Source of the DNA: Eubacteriales bacterium
Lineage (GTDB): Bacteria; Bacillota; Clostridia; Oscillospirales; CAG-272
DNA length: 64,000 nucleotides
Direction: 5' to 3'
NCBI GenBank assembly: GCA_045613205.1
Contig: JAZLAO010000037.1
Span: 14,851 to 78,850, forward strand
Below the pieces are notes generated by a model. It saw only the letters and a list, made by a program, of their open reading frames with translations, searched no databases and had not been told where the DNA came from. This document shows, in pieces, positions 3,768 through 58,800 of the stretch. The position numbers and the translations under genes are program-made. Within the stretch, counting starts at the first letter, position 1. Every line of letters begins with the position of its first letter.

Positions 3768-4952
3768 TTATGCGCGACAAAGCTCCGAAAGCTTTTCTGC
3801 GATATCGCACTCTTCCCACTTCACACCGAGCTCTTCTCTGCCCATATGGCCGTATGCCGCGAGGTCCTTGTAAATAGGCTTTCTGAGGTCGAATCTGTTT
3901 ATGATAGCAGCGGGACGAAGGTCAACGAGCTTATTAACCGCATCTGCAATTTTCGCCTCGTCAACAACAGCCGTACCGAAAGTATCTATCATTACGGATA
4001 CGGGCTTTGCGATTCCGATAGCATATGCAATCTGAACCTCGCATTTTTTTGCAAGTCCTGCTTTAACTATGTTCTTTGCAACGTATCTCGCGGCATAAGA
4101 TGCGCTTCTGTCAACCTTTGTCGGATCCTTTCCCGAAAAAGCTCCGCCGCCATGTCTTGAATAACCGCCGTAGGTATCAACTATTATCTTTCTTCCGGTA
4201 AGTCCTGTGTCACCCTGCGGTCCGCCGATAACAAATCTGCCCGTCGGGTTAACGTAAATATTCAGCTTTCCGTCGATAAGCTCCTTTGGCACAACCGGGA
4301 AAATAACGTTCTCTATTATATCCTTGCGAATGGTCTGTGAATCTATTTCGGGGCTGTGCTGCGAGGATACGACGATAGTGTCAACGCGCTTTGGAACACC
4401 GTCAACATACTCAACGGTAACCTGCGTTTTTCCGTCGGGACGGAGGTAGGAAAGCTTTCCGTTCTTGCGAACCTCGGTGAGCTTTTTAGCAAGCTTATGT
4501 GCAAGTGAAATAGGCAGAGGCATAAGCTCGGGCGTTTCGTCGCAGGCGTAACCAAACATAAGGCCCTGGTCACCCGCACCCGTATCAAGCTCGTCGGACA
4601 TCTCACCGTCCTTTGCTTCAAGGCATCTGTCAACTCCGAGAGCTATATCAGCGCTCTGCTCATGGATTGAGCTGAGGACTGCGCAGGTGGTTGCATCAAA
4701 GCCGTATTTTGCTCTGTCATAGCCAATTTCGGTAACGGTTTCGCGAACAATCGTTTGAATGTCGATTTTCGCCTCTGTTGTAATCTCTCCCATAACCGTT
4801 ATAATACCCGTCGTTGCGAACGTTTCGCAGGCAACGCGGCTCATCGGGTCCTGACGAAGAATTTCATCAAGTATAGCATCTGATATTTTATCGCAGATTT
4901 TGTCGGGATGTCCTTCGGTCACCGATTCGGACGTAAATAATACTTTTTTCAT
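3768..4952 (-). CDS. metK: S-adenosylmethionine synthetase
   Basis: Motifs [20 protein letters not shown] and [16 protein letters not shown]. The start is set at [11 protein letters not shown] (4952), not at the upstream in-frame ATG at 4988. Confidence 0.95.
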
Positions 4953-5019
4953 TTTTATACTTCCTTTACAAAAAAAATAAAACCTCAAAAATCACACCAA
5001 GCGATTCCCGAGATTCAGA

Positions 5020-5112
5020 TAAGACTCATCTGTCAGGAATTAGCACCTTATAAAAACTACAGGTTGCCGGGCTTCACAGGGCCAGTCCCTCCGCCACTCT
5101 TGATAAGCAATG
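5020..5112 (-). promoter_or_regulatory. SAM-I (S-box) riboswitch in the metK leader
   Basis: The minus strand reads CTTATCAAGAGTGGCGGAGGGACTGGCCCTGTGAAGCCCGGCAACC...AAGGTGCTAATTCCTGACAGATGAG, which matches the S-box core. P1 is CTTATC/GATGAG. I could not resolve the expression platform between the aptamer and the RBS. Confidence 0.88.
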
Positions 5113-7100: not shown

Positions 7101-7164
7101 ATTAGTCCCTCCAAAAAATAAAATTCTCTCCTACACATTATTTATGTAAGAGAGAATTAAAAGG

Positions 7165-8052
7165 TTAACCAAGCAAATCCGCTTCGGTAAAGGTATATTC
7201 GCTGTTGCAGAATCTGCATACGGCGGTCAGCTCGCGTGGCTTGCCCTCAGCCTCCTGCTCCTCGAGCATTTTTTCTATTTCCGCACGTCCGAGCGATTTT
7301 ATCTTTTCACCCATGCGCTTACGAGAGCAATCACACTTATACGAAACCTCAAGGGTGTCGAATATATCGTACGGAATATCGCGCATCGCAATTTCCGCAA
7401 TGGATTCGTTTGTATGCCCAAGCGAAATCAATTTAGAAATATTGGAAAGGTCGGAGGCGTTTCTTTCGATAAGATCAACCGTTTCTTCGTCGGGAAAAGG
7501 CATAACCTGAACGAGAACACCGCCTGCCGCAAGACAGGTATAATCCTTGTCAACCAAAACTCCGAGAGAGAGCAAGGTTGGAATCTGCTCGCTGGTCGCA
7601 AAATACGAAGCGATATCCTCTGCAATTTCGCCCGAAACAATTTCCGTAGTTCCTATTTGAGGTTCTTTTCCACCGACGTCCTTAACTACCGAAAATGTAC
7701 CGTATCCTACAGCTGCACCAACGTCAAGCTTTCCGTTTTCCTTTTTGGGTGGGTTTGCCAGCGGGTTCTGAATGTATCCCTTAACGTTGCCAAAATAATC
7801 CGCAACAGCGATTATCTTCCCTGCTTCTCCGTTTCCCGAAAAAGACATTGTAACGGTGTCTTTATCCTCGGGAAGCATCGTGCCCACCATAGATGCAGCG
7901 GTTATAGTTCTTCCCAAAGCAGCTGTTGCGGTAGGCGACGTCTTATGCGCCTTTATCATATCATTTACCATCGCGGTTGAGTTAATAACAAGTATTCTTG
8001 CCGAGCCGTCACGGGTCATACCGCGAAGGATTGTTGAAGTAGCCTTTTTCAT
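7165..8052 (-). CDS. hslO: Hsp33 redox-regulated chaperone
   Basis: 295 aa. C-terminal zinc centre is CDCSRKR...CRFCNSEY. The N-terminal Hsp33 fold sequence is RILVINSTAMVNDM. Confidence 0.9.
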   Translation of the reverse strand: MKKATSTILRGMTRDGSARILVINSTAMVNDMIKAHKTSPTATAALGRTITAASMVGTMLPEDKDTVTMSFSGNGEAGKIIAVADYFGNVKGYIQNPLANPPKKENGKLDVGAAVGYGTFSVVKDVGGKEPQIGTTEIVSGEIAEDIASYFATSEQIPTLLSLGVLVDKDYTCLAAGGVLVQVMPFPDEETVDLIERNASDLSNISKLISLGHTNESIAEIAMRDIPYDIFDTLEVSYKCDCSRKRMGEKIKSLGRAEIEKMLEEQEAEGKPRELTAVCRFCNSEYTFTEADLLG

Positions 8053-8056
8053 TTTA

Positions 8057-8818
8057 TTACTCCTTTATACATCTTGCGACAACGTAAATTCTATCGTCTT
8101 CGTCGGTTGCGTCTTCAAATAAGAAGTTCCTGTACGCCCCGATAAATTCAAATTTGTTGTCTGAAAGATGCTTTCTTATTGTTCTTAAAGTATACATTCT
8201 TTCCCTTTGAGCATCGTCATAACGGACGTACCTTCCGTCACCGTCTTCCTGAAAGAGAGTTATATAGAAATCGCAAAGTCTGCTCTTCCGATTATAGTAA
8301 TTCTGCCAGATACAAAGATTTTCCGACTGTTCCATTACATAGCTGTTGTCTGAATAAACTGTTTCAAACTTATGCTTTCCGTTTATATCGAATATAAAGA
8401 GTCCGTTCGGTATGAGATAATTATGCACTAAATAGAAGCACTTGTCAAGAGATTTTGTATCCGTAAGATGATTTATGCAATCAAGACAGGACACTGTAAC
8501 GTCGACCGTGCCGTACAGCTCAAACTCACGCATATCCTGGCATAACCAAAGAATTTTATCACCAAATCCCGCTCTTTCCGCTGCCGCTCTTGCAATATCA
8601 AGCATTTCGGGCGAGCAGTCAACACCTGTCATATCATATCCGCGACGCGCAAGCTCGAGGGTCATTTTTCCCGTTCCGGACCCAAGATCCAAAATCAAAT
8701 CGGGCTTTCCCTCTCGGTACTCGCGTTGAATTATATTCTCAATAAAATCCGCCCACGAAGAATAATCGATATCACTGTTGACCTCGTCATAAAACGGTGC
8801 TAATAAATCGTAAATCAT
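8057..8818 (-). CDS. class I SAM-dependent methyltransferase
   Basis: Motif I is ILDLGSGTGKMT, with acidic post-I GVDCSPEM. The start is set at MIYDLLAPFYD (ATG 8818), because the longer track ORF would overlap the upstream helicase gene by about 200 nt. This ATG lies 1 nt after the helicase stop. The hslO start lies 4 nt after this gene's stop. Confidence 0.8.
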   Translation of the reverse strand: MIYDLLAPFYDEVNSDIDYSSWADFIENIIQREYREGKPDLILDLGSGTGKMTLELARRGYDMTGVDCSPEMLDIARAAAERAGFGDKILWLCQDMREFELYGTVDVTVSCLDCINHLTDTKSLDKCFYLVHNYLIPNGLFIFDINGKHKFETVYSDNSYVMEQSENLCIWQNYYNRKSRLCDFYITLFQEDGDGRYVRYDDAQRERMYTLRTIRKHLSDNKFEFIGAYRNFLFEDATDEDDRIYVVARCIKE

Positions 8819-8819
8819 A

Positions 8820-11078
8820 TCACAAAAACCTCTCAAAAACTTCTTTTGCCGAAAGTCTGTCGACAGCATAAGCTCTGCGCAGAAGATGCGGAGGTATATA
8901 CTCGTCGTATTTATCAAATACGGGACATTCTCCGTTGGAAACGAGAGCCTCTGTATCAAGTCCGTCGCGCTCAAGTATAGAACGAATGGTAAAAAGCAAA
9001 TTTTTTCCCGCATCACCGCGAGCCTTGAATGTTATATAACAGCAGGCTTCGCTCTGAACGTCTGATATACCGAGCTCGGAAGAATATTTTTGTAAAAATC
9101 TTCTCAACGTGCGGAACGGTCGTGTGCCGAGCCAAGGAAAGAGAACGTAGCTTTGTCCACCGAGAAATACCAGCATATTTTCGTCCATTCTCGCTCGCTT
9201 TGCTACCTTTCGGGCGTTTTCAAGACGCTCCCGTGCGTTTTCAAGCAGGAAAGGATATTCTCTGCCGTTAAATAATATCTCGCGCATCTTGAGAAGAAGC
9301 TTAGTGTGTATCTCTCCGCTATCACCCGGCCAGGAAATCTCCATTTTACCGCCAACACCCTTGACGAATATGAGTTTTCTCGGCATGTCTATCTCCTTGA
9401 CCTCCCACACACGTCCGGCAAGAGCAAATCTGTCCCCCACGGGCGGCGGAGTCGTTATAGTTCCAATTTCCTCACTCTCGCACCTTACAGTATAATCCTC
9501 ACTGTCTTTGAACACGGCGTAAAATTTGTAGGAATTTATAATTCTCTCGCCTCGGAGTCCTACTATTATTCCACCGTCCTCTGTGAACTCAAGATAATCG
9601 TCATTTATCATTGCAACGAGCAGCTCCCGGTAGACGTCCTTTGGAAGCGATGACATCGGTGGCAGCGAAAGCACCCTTTCAGCAAGATTGCGCGCAGTGA
9701 GCTCGCCCGACGATGCGCTTATGCTGAGCGTTTGGTGAAACGCAAGGCTGAGAGGCATCTTTTTAACCGCAGGAGGCTCTATAAAGCGTTCGTCGGAATA
9801 AAGGTCGATAATGGATATTCCCCGAAGAAGCTCCCACGGTATGATTTCAGGAAGAGGCGCGTTTGGCAGTGCGGTGTCCTCTCTGTAAACCATTATCATT
9901 TCGGGCGGTGAGCCGCGTCTGCCTGAGCGACCAAGCCTCTGAAGAAAGCTTGAGACCGTAGTTGGTGCTCCAAGCTGAGCTACCCTTTCAAGACGTCCGA
10001 TATCAATACCTAGCTCCATGGTAACGGTAGCGCAGGTTACGGCTTGCGTAACCGATTCGTCCTTCATTTGAAGCTCCGCATCCTCACGAAGCGATGCCGA
10101 GAGATTACCGTGATGAATAAGAAACACGTCCTTATCTCCTCTCACTCTTGCTATCTGGCGCAGAGTTGCCGTAACATATTCGGTTTCCTCTCTTGAATTT
10201 GAAAACACCAGCGCCTTTTTTCCGTAAAGAGAATCATATAAGAACTCATACCCCGGGTCTAGAACGGCATATCCTCCGCGCTCCGTTTGGTCTGCTGTAG
10301 AGAGCCTTGGAGCAGACGTCTGGTTTTCATTTGAATTCTGGATATAAAAGTGCTCAAGCCCAAGCCGCCATTTCAGCTTTTGCTTTTCCGGAACGGGAGC
10401 TTCGGTCTTTCTTCCGCTTCCCGCTGACAGCCAATTCGATGCAATCTCGAGTGAGCCCAGTGTTGCGCTGAGCCCGATTCTTCGCGGTGAGTAACCGATA
10501 AGCCGCGAAATCCTGTTTAGAAGGCAAATAACCTGATTTCCTCGGTCGGTGCCTATCATGGAATGTATCTCGTCTATAACAACGTAACGCAAACCGCCAA
10601 AGAGTCTCGGAATGTCGTTTGAGCGATTCATAACCATAGATTCAAGGGATTCGGGCGTTATCTGTAAAATTCCCTCCGGTGATTTTAAGAGCTTTGATTT
10701 GACCGAAGCACTAACATCACCGTGCCAATGCGTAACCTTGATTCCAGATAAATCGAGCAGCTCGTCAAGTCTATAAAACTGGTCGTTAATAAGCGATTTA
10801 AGCGGTGCAATATAAAGCACCGAAACCGATTTTGATTCTGGCGGATTATCGTAAATATCCGAAATTATCGGAAAGAACGCAGCCTCCGTCTTTCCCGATG
10901 CAGTTGAGGAAGAAAGGAGTAGATTCGAATCGCTTTCAAATATAACCCGAGCCGCCTTTAGCTGAACATCTCGAAGCTCACACCAAGCGCGGTTGTAGAT
11001 ATATTCCTTTATAAAGCCCGGAAATCTATCAAAAATTCTATCCGCTTCAGTCATTCGTCTTTCCTTTCTGCCCTGCAT
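8820..11078 (-). CDS. Lhr-like DEAD/DEAH-box SF2 helicase (Shango SngC-like)
   Basis: 752 aa. Motif I STASGKTEA, motif II VVIDEIH, motif III LSATLG, motif VI QRLGRSGRR, plus a ~350-aa C-terminal extension. Its ATG overlaps the upstream stop codon (TAATG). Confidence 0.85.
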   Translation of the reverse strand: MQGRKERRMTEADRIFDRFPGFIKEYIYNRAWCELRDVQLKAARVIFESDSNLLLSSSTASGKTEAAFFPIISDIYDNPPESKSVSVLYIAPLKSLINDQFYRLDELLDLSGIKVTHWHGDVSASVKSKLLKSPEGILQITPESLESMVMNRSNDIPRLFGGLRYVVIDEIHSMIGTDRGNQVICLLNRISRLIGYSPRRIGLSATLGSLEIASNWLSAGSGRKTEAPVPEKQKLKWRLGLEHFYIQNSNENQTSAPRLSTADQTERGGYAVLDPGYEFLYDSLYGKKALVFSNSREETEYVTATLRQIARVRGDKDVFLIHHGNLSASLREDAELQMKDESVTQAVTCATVTMELGIDIGRLERVAQLGAPTTVSSFLQRLGRSGRRGSPPEMIMVYREDTALPNAPLPEIIPWELLRGISIIDLYSDERFIEPPAVKKMPLSLAFHQTLSISASSGELTARNLAERVLSLPPMSSLPKDVYRELLVAMINDDYLEFTEDGGIIVGLRGERIINSYKFYAVFKDSEDYTVRCESEEIGTITTPPPVGDRFALAGRVWEVKEIDMPRKLIFVKGVGGKMEISWPGDSGEIHTKLLLKMREILFNGREYPFLLENARERLENARKVAKRARMDENMLVFLGGQSYVLFPWLGTRPFRTLRRFLQKYSSELGISDVQSEACCYITFKARGDAGKNLLFTIRSILERDGLDTEALVSNGECPVFDKYDEYIPPHLLRRAYAVDRLSAKEVFERFL

Positions 11079-12448
11079 TAAATATCAATATCGAACAAAC
11101 TTATCTTGTTCTTAGTTTGAATCAAAGTATCTTGAGCTTCTGTTTTTTTATCTTCCGATTCGCCTTTCGTGAAGGTCATATTCTTCACAAGGTTATCAAA
11201 CGTCGCTGATTCATTATCTCGCAAAATATTCAAGAGCGTAAGAAAATCTCTGATAATCTCTCTCGGAGTTATCAGCTCCTCTGCCCCTGCGCGTGATAGC
11301 GCGAGGCGCATAAAGCTTTCAATTTCGAAGTCACTGAGAGGAGGTGTTGCCTGTCCTTCCTTCTGCATATAGAGCTTAGTGAGACGTCTCACCAGTGCTA
11401 AAAGCTCATTGTCCGAAAGTCTGCGAAGTCTTATTACGGGTGAGGACAAATTCTGGTATCCAAGCTCAGAATATTTCGAATCTGCAAGTCGGCTTTTCAA
11501 AGCCTCGTAACTGAAAAGTCCGCGTCGAGAATCCTCTAAAAATTGCGGTGTTCCGCCAAATATAACCCCAAGATTTTTCGCTTTTCCTTGGAGAGTATCG
11601 TTAAATATTGTGAGTATTTTTTCGTAATTTGCCTCTCTTGAAATCCTGTTTGGTATTTTATAGAGATTTACGCATTCATCGATAAAAAGAATTAATCCCG
11701 AGTAGCCTATTTTTACGGAAAGCGAAGCCACAAGCTTAATAAAGTCATACCAATTATCGTCGTCGATTACCGTGCTTACGCGAAAACCGAGCATACCCGA
11801 TGCCTCTGTTTTGTTGGCAAATTCACCGCGAAGCCATCTTAATGCGGCACTCTTTTTCTCTACGTCATCTCTTATGGAAGCCATGTAGTATTCACCGAGA
11901 ACCTTGGCAAAATCGAATCCTCCTACATCTCCCTCGAGCTCCGAAAGCATGAGAAAAACACGCTTTTTAAGCTCGAACTCGAAGCTTTCGGATTCGGGCA
12001 TAATTCCCTCGGACAGAATATCGGTTTTAAGCTTTGTAAGATGCCTTGAAAGAATAGTCGGCAAAGCTCCTCCGTCAGGACTTGCTTTGCTTGAAAGGTT
12101 AATCATCAGCTCCCGATAGGTAGCAAGTCCGGCACCGCTTCCACCCGTTAATCTGCGTTCGGGCGAAAGGTCGGCATCGGCGCATATAAAGCCTCGGTCA
12201 AGCGCGTAACCCCTTACGAGTTGTATTAAAAAGCTTTTGCCGCTTCCGTATCTGCCTATAAGAAATCTTGTTACGGCACCGCCCTCGGCAACCGCATCGA
12301 GATTGTCAAGTATGGAATTTATCTCTTCTTTTCTGCCTATTGCTATATAGGGCGCACCGCTTCTAGGCACAACACCTGCCGAAAGAGATGACAGCAATGT
12401 GTTTAAAATCCTTTTCGGTACTTTTATTTCATTATTTTCAACAGCCAT
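11078..12448 (-). CDS. DUF2791/BrxD-type P-loop ATPase (Shango SngB-like)
   Basis: 456 aa. Walker A is GRYGSGKS and Walker B is LILFIDE. The N-terminal LSAGVVPRSGAPYIAIGR segment is typical of the DUF2791 family. An AAGGAAG RBS lies inside the upstream ORF, giving a 25-nt overlap. Confidence 0.75.
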   Translation of the reverse strand: MAVENNEIKVPKRILNTLLSSLSAGVVPRSGAPYIAIGRKEEINSILDNLDAVAEGGAVTRFLIGRYGSGKSFLIQLVRGYALDRGFICADADLSPERRLTGGSGAGLATYRELMINLSSKASPDGGALPTILSRHLTKLKTDILSEGIMPESESFEFELKKRVFLMLSELEGDVGGFDFAKVLGEYYMASIRDDVEKKSAALRWLRGEFANKTEASGMLGFRVSTVIDDDNWYDFIKLVASLSVKIGYSGLILFIDECVNLYKIPNRISREANYEKILTIFNDTLQGKAKNLGVIFGGTPQFLEDSRRGLFSYEALKSRLADSKYSELGYQNLSSPVIRLRRLSDNELLALVRRLTKLYMQKEGQATPPLSDFEIESFMRLALSRAGAEELITPREIIRDFLTLLNILRDNESATFDNLVKNMTFTKGESEDKKTEAQDTLIQTKNKISLFDIDI

Positions 12449-14016
12449 TTTTCTATATCTTCCTTATAATCCGATATTATCTCTAAAGCAGGCGCACTTC
12501 CCTCTATAATAACGTCACCGAATCCGTCGGAAAATGCCTCGTTTATCTTCTCTGCAACAGTATCCGCGAGAGCATTTAATTCATCGGCAATCCGTTCTAT
12601 GCGCTCACTGTCCGAATCAAGAACAGCCTTGATAAACTCTATTTCCCGCAAGCTTAGTCCGTAGGTATCCCGAGCGCCGTTTGTTTCGGACATTCCAAAT
12701 ACTTCGTTCTTTTCTGAATTTACCTCTTCAAAAGCATTGAGTTCTTCGGTTTGTTCCTCGCACTCCGATACCAGTCTTGCGGTGGTTGTCCAGGATATGC
12801 GTTCTATCTCGTCTGCTCCGTCAAAGGACAGCTCGGTGGATTCTTTATCATAAAGCTTCTCATATTCGGGAACAGCCGCCCTTCTGCGTTCACGGTTAAC
12901 CTTTTCAAATATAACGTCAAAATATGAATCTATAATGTTTTTGTATTCCTCGGGCAGATTCTTAACGGCGAGTCTGCTTTTTGCACCTACAAGCGCCCGC
13001 AATTTGTTTTCAGTATATTTCACCGCCTCGGTGACAGCATGCCTCAGTCCATCCGCCGCTACTAGGGGAACGTAATCAATATCAAGCCTGCATTTAACAG
13101 AATGAGTGCAGAGTGAATTCCTAAAAGCCGTTTTCGTTAAGCGTGCAGTGCTCATCTCGGTGTTAATTATATCGCCATTATCCCAAAGCTTGTTTATAAG
13201 AACTCCCATAGCACCGAGAAGATGCTTAGAATACACCTCTTTATTTTCTCCGCCTGCATATCTGCCGCGCCGCCAGTCATAATCGGAGAGATGCGCGAGC
13301 ATAACGCCTATGCCAACATCTCCCATATTACGAGCATCGGAAAGATAAAATTCTTTAAATTCGACGTTGTATATTACGTCCTGTATAAAGTCGAAAATTT
13401 TCCCTGTGGGACTCTCCAGCCTGTAAACTATACAGTAATCCTGAATTAGAAGCGCCATATATGCGTCAACGTTGGGAAGCTCGCGTCTATATGCGCGCCA
13501 CAAGTCAATTAGCATATCAATTCCACGATTTGGGGGGATTTTATCGGGCAGATTAAGTATTTCATACACATATAGGTAAAAATACGAGTAATCGGTCTTT
13601 ATATAATTCTTTTTCCTGACAGAATCGCGCCAGTAAAAATAAAAGCTTTTTTGCTGCGAATTAAGCTGTGAATATTGCGGCATATAGGAATAAAACGGCA
13701 CGAAATCGCTTTTTGACGTTTTAAAATCGTAATACAAAAGCGCTGCTTTTCTGAAATTTCCGTAAAAGTCGTATTTATCGGGAAATCTCGTGATAGTTAC
13801 CCTTTTTATAAATCCGTTTTCTATATTATAGGTTTCGGTCTGCGTCTCACTCTTAGAATCAAAAAGCGTTATTTTGTTTTGAGCGGAAGCTCTGCTCTCT
13901 TCTCCGTTTACTGTAAATTCAACGGTTTTTTCCTTGCTTGAAAAAGAGGCAAGGCTTTTTTTCTTTCTTGGAAGGAGCTTTTCTATATCCCAATAATCGT
14001 CTTTGATATCAGACAT
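12424..14016 (-). CDS. TerB-N / TerB-C domain protein (Shango SngA-like)
   Basis: The aromatic-rich TerB-N signature is FVPFYSYMPQYSQLNSQQKSFYFYWRD...YSYFYLYVYEILN. The acidic helical C-terminus ADELNALADTVAEKINEAFSDGFGDVIIEG is TerB-C-like. The start is set at MSDIKDD (14016), because the ATG at 14031 is itself followed by GGAGGAGG, which serves as the RBS for 14016. Confidence 0.75.
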   Translation of the reverse strand: MSDIKDDYWDIEKLLPRKKKSLASFSSKEKTVEFTVNGEESRASAQNKITLFDSKSETQTETYNIENGFIKRVTITRFPDKYDFYGNFRKAALLYYDFKTSKSDFVPFYSYMPQYSQLNSQQKSFYFYWRDSVRKKNYIKTDYSYFYLYVYEILNLPDKIPPNRGIDMLIDLWRAYRRELPNVDAYMALLIQDYCIVYRLESPTGKIFDFIQDVIYNVEFKEFYLSDARNMGDVGIGVMLAHLSDYDWRRGRYAGGENKEVYSKHLLGAMGVLINKLWDNGDIINTEMSTARLTKTAFRNSLCTHSVKCRLDIDYVPLVAADGLRHAVTEAVKYTENKLRALVGAKSRLAVKNLPEEYKNIIDSYFDVIFEKVNRERRRAAVPEYEKLYDKESTELSFDGADEIERISWTTTARLVSECEEQTEELNAFEEVNSEKNEVFGMSETNGARDTYGLSLREIEFIKAVLDSDSERIERIADELNALADTVAEKINEAFSDGFGDVIIEGSAPALEIISDYKEDIEKWLLKIMK

Positions 14017-14057
14017 ATATTCCTCCTCCATTTTTTCAAGATTTTAGTTATCAATAA

Positions 14058-14086
14058 ATTATATCATATTTTTCGTAGATTGTCAA
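14058..14086 (-). promoter_or_regulatory. consensus sigma-A promoter of the TerB/ATPase/helicase cassette
   Basis: TTGACA (14086..14081), 17-nt spacer, TATAAT (14063..14058) with an upstream TG (extended -10). It sits about 40 nt before the start codon. Confidence 0.8.
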
Positions 14087-14126
14087 TTAAAATTCTTCAA
14101 AGTTATCTCAAAGTTATCTTATAAAA

Positions 14127-14165
14127 GGACTGGCACTAGTTTAAAAAAACTAAGCCAGCCCTTTT
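14127..14165. terminator. imperfect bidirectional hairpin terminator between ispE and the cassette promoter
   Basis: GGACTGGCACTAGTTT-aaaa-AAACTAAGCCAGCCC, with a one-sided internal loop and TTTT on both flanks. Confidence 0.5.
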
Positions 14166-14392
14166 GCGCTCTCGGACGGGAGTATTAAGGTGAAAATCCG
14201 CGTTATTCTGACCGAGAGCGATATGTAGATACCGCAAGGAAAGAAAACGCGGATAAAAAAGACCGTAACCTGATGGAGAAATTTATAAAAATTCAACCTT
14301 AAAGAGCGTCCTTCAGGCACTGTAAAGGAAAAGAGTCAAAGCAGTTTTTGCTTGCTTTAAAGTTTTTGTTCCATCTAAATGCATCAGCCCCA

Positions 14393-15367: not shown

Positions 15368-15396
15368 TTGACAATGCGAGACTTTTGTGATATAAT
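15368..15396 (+). promoter_or_regulatory. sigma-A promoter of the rpsF-ssb-rpsR operon
   Basis: TTGACA, 17-nt spacer, TGaTATAAT. An ~80-nt leader follows with two hairpins (TCGGG..CCCGA and GCCGCCA..TGGCGGC). Confidence 0.8.
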
Positions 15397-17596: not shown

Positions 17597-18808
17597 TTAA
17601 ACGATAAGATCCTCAAAATATCCGTGATATTTTATGTCGACGTTACTGTTCGGGAATAGAAATTTATAAAGCTCCGTGCAATAATCGTCGGTCATAGAAG
17701 CCATATAATCGACTACAATCTGGTTTGGCTCGGTTTCAATATACGGAGTTTTAGCTGCATAATGATTACCGGAGACAAAGTCAATATGATGCTTGAATAC
17801 GGGAGAGGATTTATCCCCGGCTTTAAGGTCAGAAAGGAGCTTCTCATAAAGGTTTTGCATCATGGGCTTAACCGTTTCGTCAAGCACCTTTGAAATCTGC
17901 TCGGTTTTATATATCTGCTCGTAGTTAACTTTTTTTGCTTCCTTCATACCGAGGTAATGCTCGGAATCCATCATTATATAAGGCTTTCCGTAGCTGTGCT
18001 CGATTATGTTTACCTCAAGATTGTTTATTATCTCTGCATTGATAGTTCCTATTCCCGCATCGCCGAGAGAGGCATCGGACTCTATAAACTTTGCTCTTTT
18101 TGCATCCTGTCTGTCTTTTCCGAGGTATGCTATAATATCACATACTCTTACAACGCAGCCCTCGAGCGTGGACGGAATAATTTTTGAGATATTCTTTTCG
18201 TCGACGTAGCAGCTTTCAACCATTTTATCAAAAGCTTCGAAATCAGGCATAACTGACGGACGGTATTCGTGCATTTCAAATTCACCGTTGTGGGTAATTA
18301 TACCGTCAAGCGTATCAAGCGTTATGTTGAGTGGAAAGATGCCGTCGAGAACTCTTACGCTGTGGACGTTGTGGTTAAAATATCTGCCTGTTTCCGCGTG
18401 AAAAACCTCACTGATATACCGCTCGCCCGCGTGGCCGAACGGAGTATGACCTATATCGTGACCTAGAGCAATCGCTTCTATAAGGTCAAGGTTTAGATTA
18501 AGAACAGAGCCTATAGAACGGGCTATTCTCGAAACAAGCTGAACGTGAAGCGCGCGCCTGGTTATATCGTCATTCTTATAAAATGAAAAAACCTGGGTTT
18601 TATCGGTATATCTGTTATAATACGGACTGTGCATAATTTTATCAACGTCGCGCACGTATGCCGGACGCCACACAGATTCACGGTCAAATGCGGGATTGCG
18701 CCTTACCGCATTTGCACTCTTAGCTGCAAAATTGGGACGTGTTCCCTTTTCTATATCTTCCCTTATTCTGTCAAGTATTTCGGGCGAAAGTTTTTCGTAA
18801 TTTGGCAT
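17597..18808 (-). CDS. HD-domain dGTPase-like triphosphohydrolase
   Basis: 403 aa. HD motif is LGHDIGHTPFGHAGE. The N-terminal RDVDKIMHSPYYNRYTDKTQV segment is typical of dGTP triphosphohydrolase-like proteins. Confidence 0.8.
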   Translation of the reverse strand: MPNYEKLSPEILDRIREDIEKGTRPNFAAKSANAVRRNPAFDRESVWRPAYVRDVDKIMHSPYYNRYTDKTQVFSFYKNDDITRRALHVQLVSRIARSIGSVLNLNLDLIEAIALGHDIGHTPFGHAGERYISEVFHAETGRYFNHNVHSVRVLDGIFPLNITLDTLDGIITHNGEFEMHEYRPSVMPDFEAFDKMVESCYVDEKNISKIIPSTLEGCVVRVCDIIAYLGKDRQDAKRAKFIESDASLGDAGIGTINAEIINNLEVNIIEHSYGKPYIMMDSEHYLGMKEAKKVNYEQIYKTEQISKVLDETVKPMMQNLYEKLLSDLKAGDKSSPVFKHHIDFVSGNHYAAKTPYIETEPNQIVVDYMASMTDDYCTELYKFLFPNSNVDIKYHGYFEDLIV

Positions 18809-24493: not shown

Positions 24494-25753
24494 ATGAAGG
24501 AAAACAACAAAAGCTCATTTCCCCTTTGGACCTACATAGTCAAGGGCGCTGTAATGGGAATTTTCGCCCTTGTGATAAAGCTCATTTCCTCATTTTCCTC
24601 CATTGCGGTTTATTCGCAGGACGGTATAGTAGTAGACCTCCCCGATTTCGCAGCAGATATAGCAATCTTCGTTGCTTCACTCATTATATATAATTCGGTA
24701 TTTAACCTATTCTTTTCCTTTGACAAATCTGCCGCTAAAGAATATTTTAATTCCGAAGCAAGCCTTGGCGAAAAATCCGAATTCAAACGAACCTTTTTCT
24801 GCAAATCCTTTTTAGCGGAAGCCATACCCGCGCTTCTCATACTCTCAATCGCGAGTGCGTGCGGTGCATCCTGGGAGATTTTCGGAATGTTTCATACCGC
24901 TGACGGAAAAAGCCCGTATTCCGACGGACTTCTTCCCTTTTTGGCAACCGCAGCTCTCGTCTTTCTTATTTTGGCGTATGAACGATACGAAGCTGTACGT
25001 TACTTCAAAATTTTAAAGAAGCAATCAGCGCTTGAAGAGCTTGAGAGTAAATCAAAAATCATTCTCAGGATAATGCTCATTTTTGCATATCCACTAGTTC
25101 TCCCCTATTTGCCGCTCATCGCATATCTTTTCATAAGCTCGGCAAATATTATAACGGCTCTTCTTGCGGCCCCTGTGCTCATACTGAGCATACTTGCTAT
25201 TATTGCCGCTATTATCGGAATAAGGCTGCTTATTTCGATAAAAAACAGACGTACGTTTTTCAAGAAGCTGAATACGCTTGTACGACAGAATTCCTTTACA
25301 CTTTCCGAAATTCAAAACCCATATGCTTCTCTGTTTTCAAGAAAGAAAAACTGCACTTTTACTGTAAAAACCAAAAAAGGCAGCTTTGACTGCCTTGTGA
25401 TTGGAAATCTAAACTCATCCGTGCCAATCTGCTTTACTTCGAATAGCGAAGGATACTACAGATACAGACTCGGTACAGCAAAGCATAACGTGACTATGCA
25501 AAAGCACTTTGAGTATACAGCACCCGGTGAAAACAGAAAGATAATGATAATAAATCCCACACCTAAATATGCTTATATTTGTGACCCGGAATGTAAAAAG
25601 GAAAAGCGCCTTTACAACTCCGATAAGCTTTGGAATTTCGTTGTATACGAAGCAGAAGCGTTTTTAGGCGCACTTGACCGAGGCTCGCTCGGCAGATCTA
25701 CATCGGTGGGCGAAGAAACCGTAGACGTATCCGTTCCGTTAAGGCTTATGTAG
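24494..25753 (+). CDS. hypothetical multi-pass membrane protein with a soluble C-terminal domain
   Basis: 419 aa with a GGAGG RBS. About 6 hydrophobic segments span the first 250 aa, then a ~160-aa Cys/Lys-rich soluble domain follows. I recognise no motif. Confidence 0.6.
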   Translation: MKENNKSSFPLWTYIVKGAVMGIFALVIKLISSFSSIAVYSQDGIVVDLPDFAADIAIFVASLIIYNSVFNLFFSFDKSAAKEYFNSEASLGEKSEFKRTFFCKSFLAEAIPALLILSIASACGASWEIFGMFHTADGKSPYSDGLLPFLATAALVFLILAYERYEAVRYFKILKKQSALEELESKSKIILRIMLIFAYPLVLPYLPLIAYLFISSANIITALLAAPVLILSILAIIAAIIGIRLLISIKNRRTFFKKLNTLVRQNSFTLSEIQNPYASLFSRKKNCTFTVKTKKGSFDCLVIGNLNSSVPICFTSNSEGYYRYRLGTAKHNVTMQKHFEYTAPGENRKIMIINPTPKYAYICDPECKKEKRLYNSDKLWNFVVYEAEAFLGALDRGSLGRSTSVGEETVDVSVPLRLM

Positions 25754-28560: not shown

Positions 28561-28812
28561 AAGACCACCGACAGCGAATTTGTCTGTCAGCGGTCTTTTT
28601 AAAAAGGTACCCGCGAGGCCGTGTAAGGCAATGTTTAACCCTGTATATACAGGTGGGTGCTCTCTCTGTTACTTTGCGCTTCCAACGTCCGTTTAGGGAG
28701 GGTCAAAGACAGCTCCCGACGGGAGGCCTGCATCCCGATAACAGAAGTCCAAGCTCCCCGGCAAAGTGTGTAGGTCCAAATATCACAATATCACGCACCG
28801 CGCAGGAGGAAT
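28561..28812 (-). promoter_or_regulatory. unclassified structured 5' leader (riboswitch-like) plus terminator hairpin upstream of ATPase paralog 1
   Basis: A GC-rich ~200-nt tract between DUF1292 and the ATPase. The closing helix is ACTTTGC/GCAAAGT (28761..28767 with 28671..28677). Internal hairpins are CTCCC-gac-GGGAG and the palindrome CCTGTATATACAGG. Then a 12/14-bp hairpin (28561..28597) is followed on the minus strand by TTTTACTT, about 55 nt before the ATG. I recognised no known riboswitch consensus. Confidence 0.45.
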
Positions 28813-34175: not shown

Positions 34176-35132
34176 TTATTCAAGATTTTTATAAAGTCCT
34201 ATAGGAGCATATGCTCCGGAAAACAGAGTAAGATAGATTAATAACAGAGTAAAATCCTTGCCCTCATCACGAAAAACTATAGAATAATACTGTGCGCTGC
34301 CGTCCTCTGTTTCAAAAGAAATGGTGTTTATTCTGTAAAGCGAAATGCCGAATGCTTCTGCCGCACAGAGCAATTCAGATAAAGAAATTGAAGAGTCAAC
34401 ACGAAGTCTTATTTCAAGATACCTGTCATCGTCCTCTTTTACGTCCGGCACGAAAAAATGCTTTGACACCAGAGCATATTTCATATCCGCAAGACCTTCA
34501 AATCCAAAAACCGGAGTTACCGAATTGATTTTCAAATCCTCCTTGAAAAGAAGCTCGGCAACAGACGCAAGCCGTGCGCCCCCCTTTTCCTCAAGAGGAA
34601 GAAGCGCATATTCGGATTCGCCCTTAGAGACAGCCCTTGCTGCTTCAGAAAGACTGAGTGAATACTTAACCCTCGGGTCTTTAAATTCCTCTGAAAAAAC
34701 CTCGTAAGCTTCATCTGCCAGTGAATTCCTCACGTAAGTGAAGGTTTCGGCACCCGATGCCGTAGGCAAAAAATCCTTCTCTGTTATTAGTATTCCCTTT
34801 TCGCCAATCATATCCCTGAATAGCTCAGTGAAAACAATTTTATCGTATCTGCAGTTTGATTTTAGGTATTCGGAGAGTCGCTCGTAATTCTCCTTCAAAG
34901 AATTTTTATGAACCTTTACATCAGGTGTAAAAAATGCTTCCGAAATAACAGAAAGAACCTCGTAAATACCGTATCCCTCACGAAGCATCGCAGCAGCCAT
35001 AGATGCAGCTTCTCGAGCGGGATAGGCGAATTCGCATATTCTTTGCTCTGCTGCTGACGATTGTCCGAGAGAAATCTTTTCAATATTTTCGGCAGTTATA
35101 GCGTTAAAAGTAAAAAGACCGTCGTTATTCAT
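34176..35132 (-). CDS. prephenate dehydratase-like / ACT-like protein, probably non-catalytic
   Basis: 318 aa. The middle segment TFTYVRNSLADEAYEVF...GESEYALLPLEEKGGARLASVAELL resembles the first lobe of the PDT domain. The C-terminus LEIRLRVDSSISLSELLCAAEAFGISLYRINT is ACT-like. The second PDT lobe is absent. Confidence 0.4.
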   Translation of the reverse strand: MNNDGLFTFNAITAENIEKISLGQSSAAEQRICEFAYPAREAASMAAAMLREGYGIYEVLSVISEAFFTPDVKVHKNSLKENYERLSEYLKSNCRYDKIVFTELFRDMIGEKGILITEKDFLPTASGAETFTYVRNSLADEAYEVFSEEFKDPRVKYSLSLSEAARAVSKGESEYALLPLEEKGGARLASVAELLFKEDLKINSVTPVFGFEGLADMKYALVSKHFFVPDVKEDDDRYLEIRLRVDSSISLSELLCAAEAFGISLYRINTISFETEDGSAQYYSIVFRDEGKDFTLLLIYLTLFSGAYAPIGLYKNLE

Positions 35133-39476: not shown

Positions 39477-39526
39477 TGTTGTTTTTACAACATTTTGATT
39501 ATAACATACATTTTCTGGTTTGTCAA
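39477..39526 (-). promoter_or_regulatory. sigma-A promoter of the marR operon with a candidate palindromic operator
   Basis: TTGACA (39526..39521), 17-nt spacer, TATAAT (39503..39498). The palindrome TGTTGT-aaaa-ACAACA at 39477..39492 overlaps the predicted transcription start. Confidence 0.6.
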
Positions 39527-58493: not shown

Positions 58494-58800
58494 ATTCAAT
58501 GTGTCGGAAAGAGCCATACTCCCCTCCGTCGAAATACCCTTACATACGGTAACCGCCACGTTTGCTCCGAACAGGCAACCTTGCGGCACATCCGATAAAC
58601 CGCTTAATGCTGCTTGGTTCCCCACCTGACATGGTTCACAGCCTCGAATTGCGCAAGACCAATTCTTCAACACAAACAATGACGGTGCAGTCTACACAAG
58701 AATAGCCCTCGGGAGAGGAAATAACCCCTGCTATAGCGGATTTCAGGTACAAGGCGCCGCTACCTCCCCGGCCGGTATGACTCCATCCGACACATTGAAT
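58494..58800 (-). ncRNA. ffs: signal recognition particle RNA (large Bacillus-type scRNA)
   Basis: The minus strand contains the domain IV core CAUGUCAGGUGGGGAACCAAGCAGCAUUAAG, with a GGAA tetraloop. The 5' end UUCAAUGUGUCGGA pairs with the 3' end UCCGACACAUUGAA. The position upstream of dnaX matches Firmicute synteny. End coordinates are good to about +/-10 nt. Confidence 0.88.

Follow-up and report, generated by a model that had tools for sequence, protein, structure and literature searches.

Identity of the cassette

The window analysed here is a 64,000-nucleotide stretch of contig JAZLAO010000037.1 from an Eubacteriales bacterium (assembly GCA_045613205.1). Three adjacent, co-oriented genes on its minus strand, lying downstream of ispE and upstream of a methyltransferase gene and hslO, encode a TerB-family protein, an ATPase of the BrxC_BrxD family and a DEAD/DEAH helicase. 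Judged by sequence-level identity, this trio is very probably a complete three-gene Shango anti-phage system, and the genes are accordingly named sngA, sngB and sngC below. The first open reading frame (ORF) has Pfam matches to TerB_N (E-value 1.6e-18) and TerB_C (2.7e-9), both above gathering scores, and matches the PADLOC SngA model (4.7e-44) over model positions 81–527 of 528. The second matches BrxC_BrxD (PF10923, formerly DUF2791; 3.5e-144) in Pfam and SngB in PADLOC (1.6e-161, model positions 3–429 of 439), with BrxD reaching only 1.5e-42, and its 145.9 bits against the NCBIfam BREX_BrxD equivalog, for which the cut-off is 350, place it outside BrxD as that model defines it. The third matches DEAD (8e-28) and Helicase_C (1.4e-14) in Pfam and SngC in PADLOC (1.7e-234, model positions 5–713 of 720), with BrxHI at 7.8e-120. 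Its score against TIGR04121 (Lhr/ligase-associated DEXH helicase) is 190 bits, against a cut-off of 850, and covers residues 23–391 only; DEAD_assoc (PF08494) and DUF1998 gave no match to SngC in the Pfam scan.

We assign the trio to Shango because the Sng models outscore the Brx models and because the same trio is found on a Clostridium estertheticum plasmid and on Klebsiella IncFIB conjugative plasmids, where it was recognised by annotation (TerB N-terminal domain protein, ATP-binding protein, DEAD/DEAH box helicase). SngC is 47% identical to the C. estertheticum plasmid copy and ~30% identical to the Klebsiella IncFIB copies. That the trio constitutes a functional Shango defence operon is also probable from sequence, if somewhat less so than its identity. 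The copy thus belongs to an already named and experimentally validated system, and Shango itself is not new. Public data contain hundreds to thousands of homologues of the Sng proteins of this clade; the phage collection searched yielded none of SngB.

The Shango composition had already been recognised in an earlier reading of this DNA made from the letters and ORF translations (hereafter the original prediction). It is borne out by the full-length PADLOC matches to all three models and by profile matches to TerB_N, TerB_C and DUF2791 that proved significant rather than missing, and the motifs then quoted are all present in the translations of the three ORFs. The description of the cassette as a poorly understood system stands as far as mechanism is concerned, but not otherwise, as Shango is named, validated and represented by thousands of database homologues.

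Architecture of SngA, SngB and SngC

SngA consists of a disordered N-terminus (residues 1–58), TerB_N (83–201; nt 13414–13770, 23.5% aromatic), a helical and beta middle part, an acidic linker (416–448) and TerB_C (420–522; nt 12451–12759), and contains the motifs FVPFYSYMPQY, FYFYWRD and YFYLYVYEILN. In its AlphaFold2 model (predicted local distance difference test score, pLDDT, 76) the acidic linker is disordered and TerB_C is compact. The TerB core domain PF05099, present in the 769-aa SngA of the Klebsiella plasmids (2e-7), gave no match at E ≤ 1 in the window SngA or in any of 45 clade members, and the C. estertheticum plasmid SngA likewise lacks it. Because of this shared absence, the window SngA is classed, from its sequence, as a short subtype without the TerB core that is still covered by the SngA model. 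Profile comparison of the clade SngA with Klebsiella SngA aligned the TerB_N motif alone, and of the three subunits SngA diverges by far the most across Shango systems. A likeness to LysR-type winged-helix domains was set aside, as the local Foldseek matches span ~76 residues and are non-significant (E ~0.3). Sequence searches of the PDB with SngA and with SngB found nothing.

SngB carries a Walker A motif, GRYGSGKS, at residues 65–72 (nt 12233–12256; including K71) and a Walker B motif, LILFIDE, at residues 252–258 (nt 11675–11695; including D257 and E258), and is 38% identical to the Klebsiella plasmid SngB over its full length. Through its membership of the BrxC_BrxD family (PF10923), SngB is predicted to be an ORC/Cdc6-type AAA+ ATPase, the class to which a 2026 comparative study assigns the BrxD family (PMC12839542). 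The same study proposes that BrxD loads or activates a partner helicase, BrxHI.

SngC shows motifs I (STASGKT, nt 10887–10910), II (DEIH, nt 10563–10574), III (SAT) and VI (QRLGRSGRR, nt 9915–9941), all invariant across 47 homologues of 34–62% identity. Its sequence similarity to Lhr and MrfA is limited to the motor domains and ends at about residue 400. The best PDB match found by Foldseek for the whole protein is the Mycobacterium smegmatis Lhr core (5v9x_A, E 2.3e-23), followed by MrfA/YprA (6znp, 4.2e-17), and SngC can be described, on the basis of its predicted structure (pLDDT 70), as a superfamily 2 (SF2) helicase of Lhr-like type with an Lhr-core-like fold. Beyond the motor, the AlphaFold2 model has a helical, winged-helix-like part (residues 407–508), a beta-rich part (508–580) and an alpha+beta part (580–744). 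The C-terminal 350 residues (nt 8823–9872) recur as a module in 1362 representative clusters and nearly always sit at the C-terminus of the protein they match; full-length proteins bearing it measure ~700–770 aa. No nuclease-type motif was recognised among the invariant residues of this C-terminal part.

Operon structure

The coordinates of the cassette, its control elements and the two genes that follow it are collected in Table 1. The three minus-strand ORFs of the original prediction (the third read there as 8820..11078) were recovered in the ORF listing, with the 25-nt overlap between sngA and sngB, an overlap that measures ~22 nt in most cassette-carrying relatives.

Table 1. Genes and control elements of the sng locus, in order of transcription
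Feature	Coordinates	Strand	Remarks
Terminator-like hairpin after ispE	14121..14165	-	Stem ~19 bp, A-run before, TTTTAT after; RNA fold
Sigma-A-type promoter	14058..14086	-	TTGACA-17-TATAAT with TG extended -10; 12/12 consensus match
sngA	12424..14016	-	530 aa; in-frame ATG 14031 would give 535 aa
sngB	11078..12448	-	456 aa
sngC	8820..11054	-	744 aa from ATG 11054 (probable start); 752 aa from 11078
Class I SAM-dependent methyltransferase (SAM, S-adenosylmethionine)	8057..8818	-	253 aa; Pfam Methyltransf_25; outside Shango
hslO (Hsp33 chaperone)	7165..8052	-	HSP33 Pfam annotation in relatives; outside Shango
Terminator-like hairpin after hslO	7158..7122	-	First such hairpin 3' of sngC

We have high confidence, from sequence features, in the prediction that the cassette is expressed from its own strong constitutive-type promoter. 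Perfect extended -10 promoters occur three times in the 64 kb, against 0 expected in shuffled sequences, and the sngA promoter is one of them. The succession of hairpin, TTGACA-N17-TGnTAnAAT promoter and ribosome-binding site also precedes sngA in seven other species (L001, L002, L004, L006, L014, L016 and L018, the L numbers denoting the loci compared), a recurrence that carries more weight as evidence than one sequence matching the consensus. Both the sigma-A promoter and the hairpin separating ispE from the cassette had been part of the original prediction and are upheld here. The other two perfect TTGACA-N14-TGnTATAAT sites lie at 15368–15396 (+) and 39498–39526 (-); the former, of the same consensus class as the Shango promoter, precedes the rpsF-ssb-rpsR ribosomal protein genes. 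The ispE-sngA spacer, at 376 nt, is ~200 nt longer than the 110–190 nt of relatives, and its extra 5' part (14166–14392, -), which includes a CGCTCTCGG...CCGAGAGCG stem, folds better than shuffled sequences (z = -3.3); Rfam returned no family for the spacer, and this extra part holds no ORF of note.

The start of sngA is preceded by the ribosome-binding site GGAGGAGG at 14022–14029, and the database gene call (P0001) likewise gives a protein of 530 aa. For sngC, the true start is probably ATG 11054, ~20 nt past the sngB stop, because the nearest homologues are nearly all 744 aa long (range 738–751, with 99% coverage of the 752-aa ORF) and because a Shine-Dalgarno sequence, AAAGGAAAG, precedes ATG 11054 and none precedes ATG 11078. 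The TAATG stop/start overlap at 11078, which the original prediction had read as translational coupling of sngB and sngC, is present in the sequence but is probably coincidental.

The 3' end of the cassette is not closed, contrary to its earlier description as a self-contained unit. The methyltransferase ATG lies 1 nt past the sngC TGA, hslO starts 4 nt past the methyltransferase stop, and no terminator was found between sngC and the end of hslO. Because of these spacings, and because the first terminator-like hairpin follows hslO, the transcription unit probably comprises five genes, sngA-sngB-sngC-methyltransferase-hslO, and the Shango promoter, as read from the sequence, probably now also drives the last two. 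A further TTGACA-17-CATAAT site (11/12) at 8420–8448 (-), inside the methyltransferase gene and ~370 nt upstream of hslO, could serve as an internal promoter, which would make hslO in part independent of the Shango promoter. We asked whether the methyltransferase might be a fourth Shango gene and rejected the idea, as it is present without Shango and absent beside the plasmid Shango copies; its PADLOC match to mad2 covers the generic SAM-binding fold only.

Distribution and inheritance

An IspE protein scan with one genome per species yielded 25 loci, and the neighbourhood was readable in 18 syntenic relatives. The 21 closest IspE loci belong to metagenome-assembled genomes of uncultured Eubacteriales/Clostridia, many from yak, sheep or roe-deer gut, with IspE identities of at most 68%, leaving the species of the window without a close representative. 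In 11 of the 18 (L001, L002, L004, L006, L007, L012, L013, L014, L015, L016 and L018), sngA and usually the full sngABC set occupy the same site, downstream of ispE and upstream of a methyltransferase-hslO-sod-like-pfk array. The other seven (L003, L008, L009, L010, L019, L020 and L021) lack the cassette and have an ispE-methyltransferase gap of 15–87 bp. The cassette is thus not an invariant core operon; invariance across all relatives was part of one outcome that the original prediction had named as speaking against its reading. Two metagenome loci found through SngA homologues share the downstream linkage, one of them with a different upstream neighbour. In a more distant relative (L029, 1–7000) a P-type cation ATPase replaces ispE upstream and sngABC-methyltransferase-hslO-sod-like-pfk is intact.

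On the core-gene tree, Shango-bearing and Shango-less species are interleaved; the nearest neighbour of the window (L003) lacks the cassette, as do the two deepest branches. Pairwise identity of SngB and SngC tracks that of core genes (r = 0.89, 36 pairs). Between L001 and L002, the closest pair, synonymous divergence (dS) is 0.9–1.14 for the sng genes and 0.92–1.29 for the flanks, and the cassette has been held at a single chromosomal site over a span in which synonymous sites are near saturation. The ratio of nonsynonymous to synonymous divergence (dN/dS) in this pair is 0.032 for sngB, 0.035 for sngC, 0.032 for pfk, 0.047 for hslO, 0.049 for the methyltransferase, 0.099 for ispE and 0.138 for sngA; sngB and sngC are constrained as strongly as pfk, and the rate for sngA is several times higher. 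On the simplest history, the cassette would have entered once, long ago, between ispE and the methyltransferase gene, then been passed on vertically and been lost at least four times. When the Shango-less L003 was searched for a deletion scar, only weak local alignments were returned, the sequences being too diverged for the junction to separate loss from never having gained the cassette.

The ispE-sngA junction holds extra genes in four relatives (L007, 10580–12254; L013, 2437–3839; L015, 2670–7357; L012, 10880–19562), which encode a DUF4886 protein, an EamA transporter, a BspA-type leucine-rich-repeat surface protein, an AraC regulator, a GH38 mannosidase and a large lectin/phosphoesterase protein. 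Because this cargo is non-defence, the junction was rejected as a defence hotspot and is described as a small, variable insertion hotspot, not a defence island.

This stable inheritance bears on the best-surviving alternative to defence, namely that Shango has been domesticated in this ruminant-gut Clostridia lineage as a housekeeping module, its helicase-loader pair serving a constitutive role in genome maintenance or stress, for example by clearing RNA:DNA hybrids or stalled complexes, with the TerB-core-less SngA as regulator and with phage defence secondary or absent. Lhr-type helicases are thought to remove such hybrids or complexes. A fixed, co-oriented position among core genes, probable co-transcription with hslO (which encodes a redox-stress chaperone), a dS equal to that of the flanks, pfk-like constraint on sngB and sngC and the persistence of the sngABC-methyltransferase-hslO linkage beside a changed upstream neighbour would all suit a resident of this kind. 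The same is true of a composition that is not anomalous (cassette GC 0.40–0.50, as in the flanks) and of the lack of mobile-element genes near the cassette among the window ORFs scanned. However, seven of the 18 syntenic relatives, including the nearest core-tree neighbour, do without the cassette, its best profile matches are to defence models, orthologous trios reside on plasmids, the evolutionary rate of SngA is several times that of its partners, as for a component facing a changing target, and validated Shango systems protect against phage. On the side of domestication there is also an earlier comparative-genomics proposal by Anantharaman et al. 2012, in the form in which the Shango papers cite it, tying Ter domains to anti-phage or stress functions. 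On balance we consider domestication unlikely, and a defence operon that has become a long-term chromosomal resident is the reading we prefer.

Genomic surroundings

The larger window ORFs scanned are housekeeping genes, among them mreB, recD2, metK, pfk, hslO, ispE, ffh, ksgA, lepA, mutS2, dnaX and phoH, and the sporulation gene yqfD is also present; position and similarity to relatives place rpsF, ssb and rpsR immediately upstream of ispE. The view that the cassette sits among core genes of a spore-former rather than in an obvious island is therefore retained. No other defence system was found in the scanned ORFs, apart from a dGTPase-like protein with HD and HD_assoc domains at 17597–18808 (-), which matches the PADLOC dGTPase model at 6.1e-45 with partial coverage. 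Because it is kept at 74–94% identity in nine relatives, with and without Shango, a housekeeping role as a dGTP triphosphohydrolase is more likely for this protein than one in defence.

Three structured RNAs in the window score above Rfam gathering thresholds: a SAM riboswitch at 5023–5109 (-), upstream of metK (3768–4988), 6S RNA at 28604–28811 (-) and the large bacterial signal recognition particle RNA at 58514–58780 (-). Two sizeable ORFs have no Pfam match at 1e-5, at 24494–25753 (+; 419 aa) and 34176–35132 (-; 318 aa), and the former has no PADLOC match either.

Possible mode of action

A tentative mechanism, drawn from homology to the BrxD-BrxHI pair and to Lhr, is that SngA gates SngB and that SngB loads SngC on invading DNA; we regard it as possible, at rather less than even chances. 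In this scheme SngA, which evolves fastest of the three and is translationally coupled to SngB, would be a soluble TerB_N/TerB_C sensor or regulatory subunit that senses the invader or gates SngB-SngC, and SngB would oligomerise and load or activate SngC on DNA. SngC, as an Lhr-like 3'-to-5' SF2 translocase with extra DNA-binding modules, would target invading DNA or phage replication/recombination intermediates, or expose them to host nucleases. Because the Shango trio contains no recognisable nuclease or toxin, protection would probably amount to ATP-driven interference with phage DNA replication or to a handover to host nucleases.

Cell suicide appears less likely than direct interference with phage DNA, which also suits the pattern of protection described in the Shango literature better than abortive infection does. 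An abortive-infection version of Shango, in which SngA would sense a perturbation of the membrane or envelope at phage entry and turn the helicase against host DNA or RNA, so that the cell would die or be arrested, sits poorly with three soluble-looking proteins: hydropathy analysis found no transmembrane or strongly hydrophobic segment in SngA, SngB or SngC, Pfam and PADLOC found no toxin-like domain in any of them, and the TerB core is missing from the window SngA. We rate it as improbable, marginally more so than domestication.

Several observations weigh against a defence operon working as a loader and its helicase. The long vertical retention and pfk-strength purifying selection described above are not typical of a defence system. 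The SngA of the window, at 530 aa against 769 aa in Klebsiella, lacks the central PF05099 domain, as do its clade relatives, and has only the TerB_N core motif in common with that protein; its predicted structure has no significant match in the PDB by Foldseek. The SngC model is of low confidence at residues 508–580, and the loader-helicase scheme for SngB-SngC is an analogy from a proposal made for type 2 of the bacteriophage exclusion (BREX) systems. No mechanistic study of Shango was found in the searchable literature, nor any experiment on a Firmicutes Shango, the window copy included. Given the full-length profile matches set out above, we nevertheless keep the defence operon as the preferred reading, with the loading mechanism as its tentative part.

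Significance

The window copy adds nothing categorically new, and it little improves the testability of how Shango works over that of known copies. Its secondary points of interest, none of which should surprise a specialist, are the short SngA subtype, the stable vertical inheritance and the probable read-through to the methyltransferase gene and hslO. A compact Firmicutes-type Shango whose SngA has no TerB core narrows the essential part of this subunit to TerB_N and TerB_C. Orthologous operons from at least 11 species, together with relatives that lack Shango at the same site and so serve as matched natural knock-outs, form a set suited to evolutionary-rate analysis and to co-variation analysis of the SngA-SngB-SngC interfaces. 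A defence system kept as a stable chromosomal resident, rather than as island cargo, also bears on how defence genes are retained. Were domestication to prove true, the lineage would be a natural system for finding the targets of Shango-type machines.

Comparison with known systems

Shango was reported and validated in Escherichia coli (Millman et al. 2022), which it protects ~10-fold from two phages, and was also validated in Pseudomonas aeruginosa PA14, where it lies in a variable defence hotspot (Johnson et al. 2023). The window cassette resembles these validated systems in gene order and in its complement of a TerB-family protein, a PF10923 ATPase and a DEAD/DEAH helicase. In contrast to the Pseudomonas copy in its hotspot and to the other copies compared here, which are on plasmids, it is chromosomal, lies outside defence islands and is vertically inherited. 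On the C. estertheticum plasmid pCF002-344, an 848-aa UvrA-like double ATP-binding cassette (ABC) ATPase is encoded 18 nt past sngC (L026, 10247–12793, +); it matches PADLOC mad3 (5.3e-68), has no counterpart in the window and may be a fourth Shango gene or an adjacent defence gene of that plasmid.

The closest parallel outside Shango is the BrxD-BrxHI pair of BREX type 2 (Pgl) and type 6, a homologous and tightly linked ORC/Cdc6-type ATPase and Lhr-like helicase, as SngB and SngC are. The published architecture of BrxHI, with a motor, a winged helix, a HAS-like beta-barrel and an Lhr-like C-terminal domain (PMC12839542), is matched by the layout of the SngC model (motor, helical, beta-rich, alpha+beta). 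Unlike BREX loci, the window has none of the PglX methyltransferase, PglZ, BrxC and PglW among the ORFs scanned with Pfam and PADLOC, nor do these genes stand beside the cassette in the related loci inspected; a TerB_N/TerB_C protein is encoded upstream instead, and the original prediction, which had noted no PglX, PglZ or BrxC, is supported within this scope. That the cassette is a BREX type 2 or type 6 remnant or satellite, a BrxD-BrxHI pair left after the loss of PglX, PglZ and BrxC, is very improbable: the BrxD and BrxHI matches and the tight linkage of that pair in BREX type 2 speak for it, but the Sng models score far better, SngB falls far below the NCBIfam BrxD cut-off and the TerB_N/TerB_C gene is translationally coupled upstream.

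Among structures, the Lhr core (5v9x) and MrfA/YprA (6znp) remain the best full-length matches to SngC. Unlike Lhr and MrfA, which are stand-alone repair helicases, SngC is encoded together with an ATPase and a TerB-family partner.

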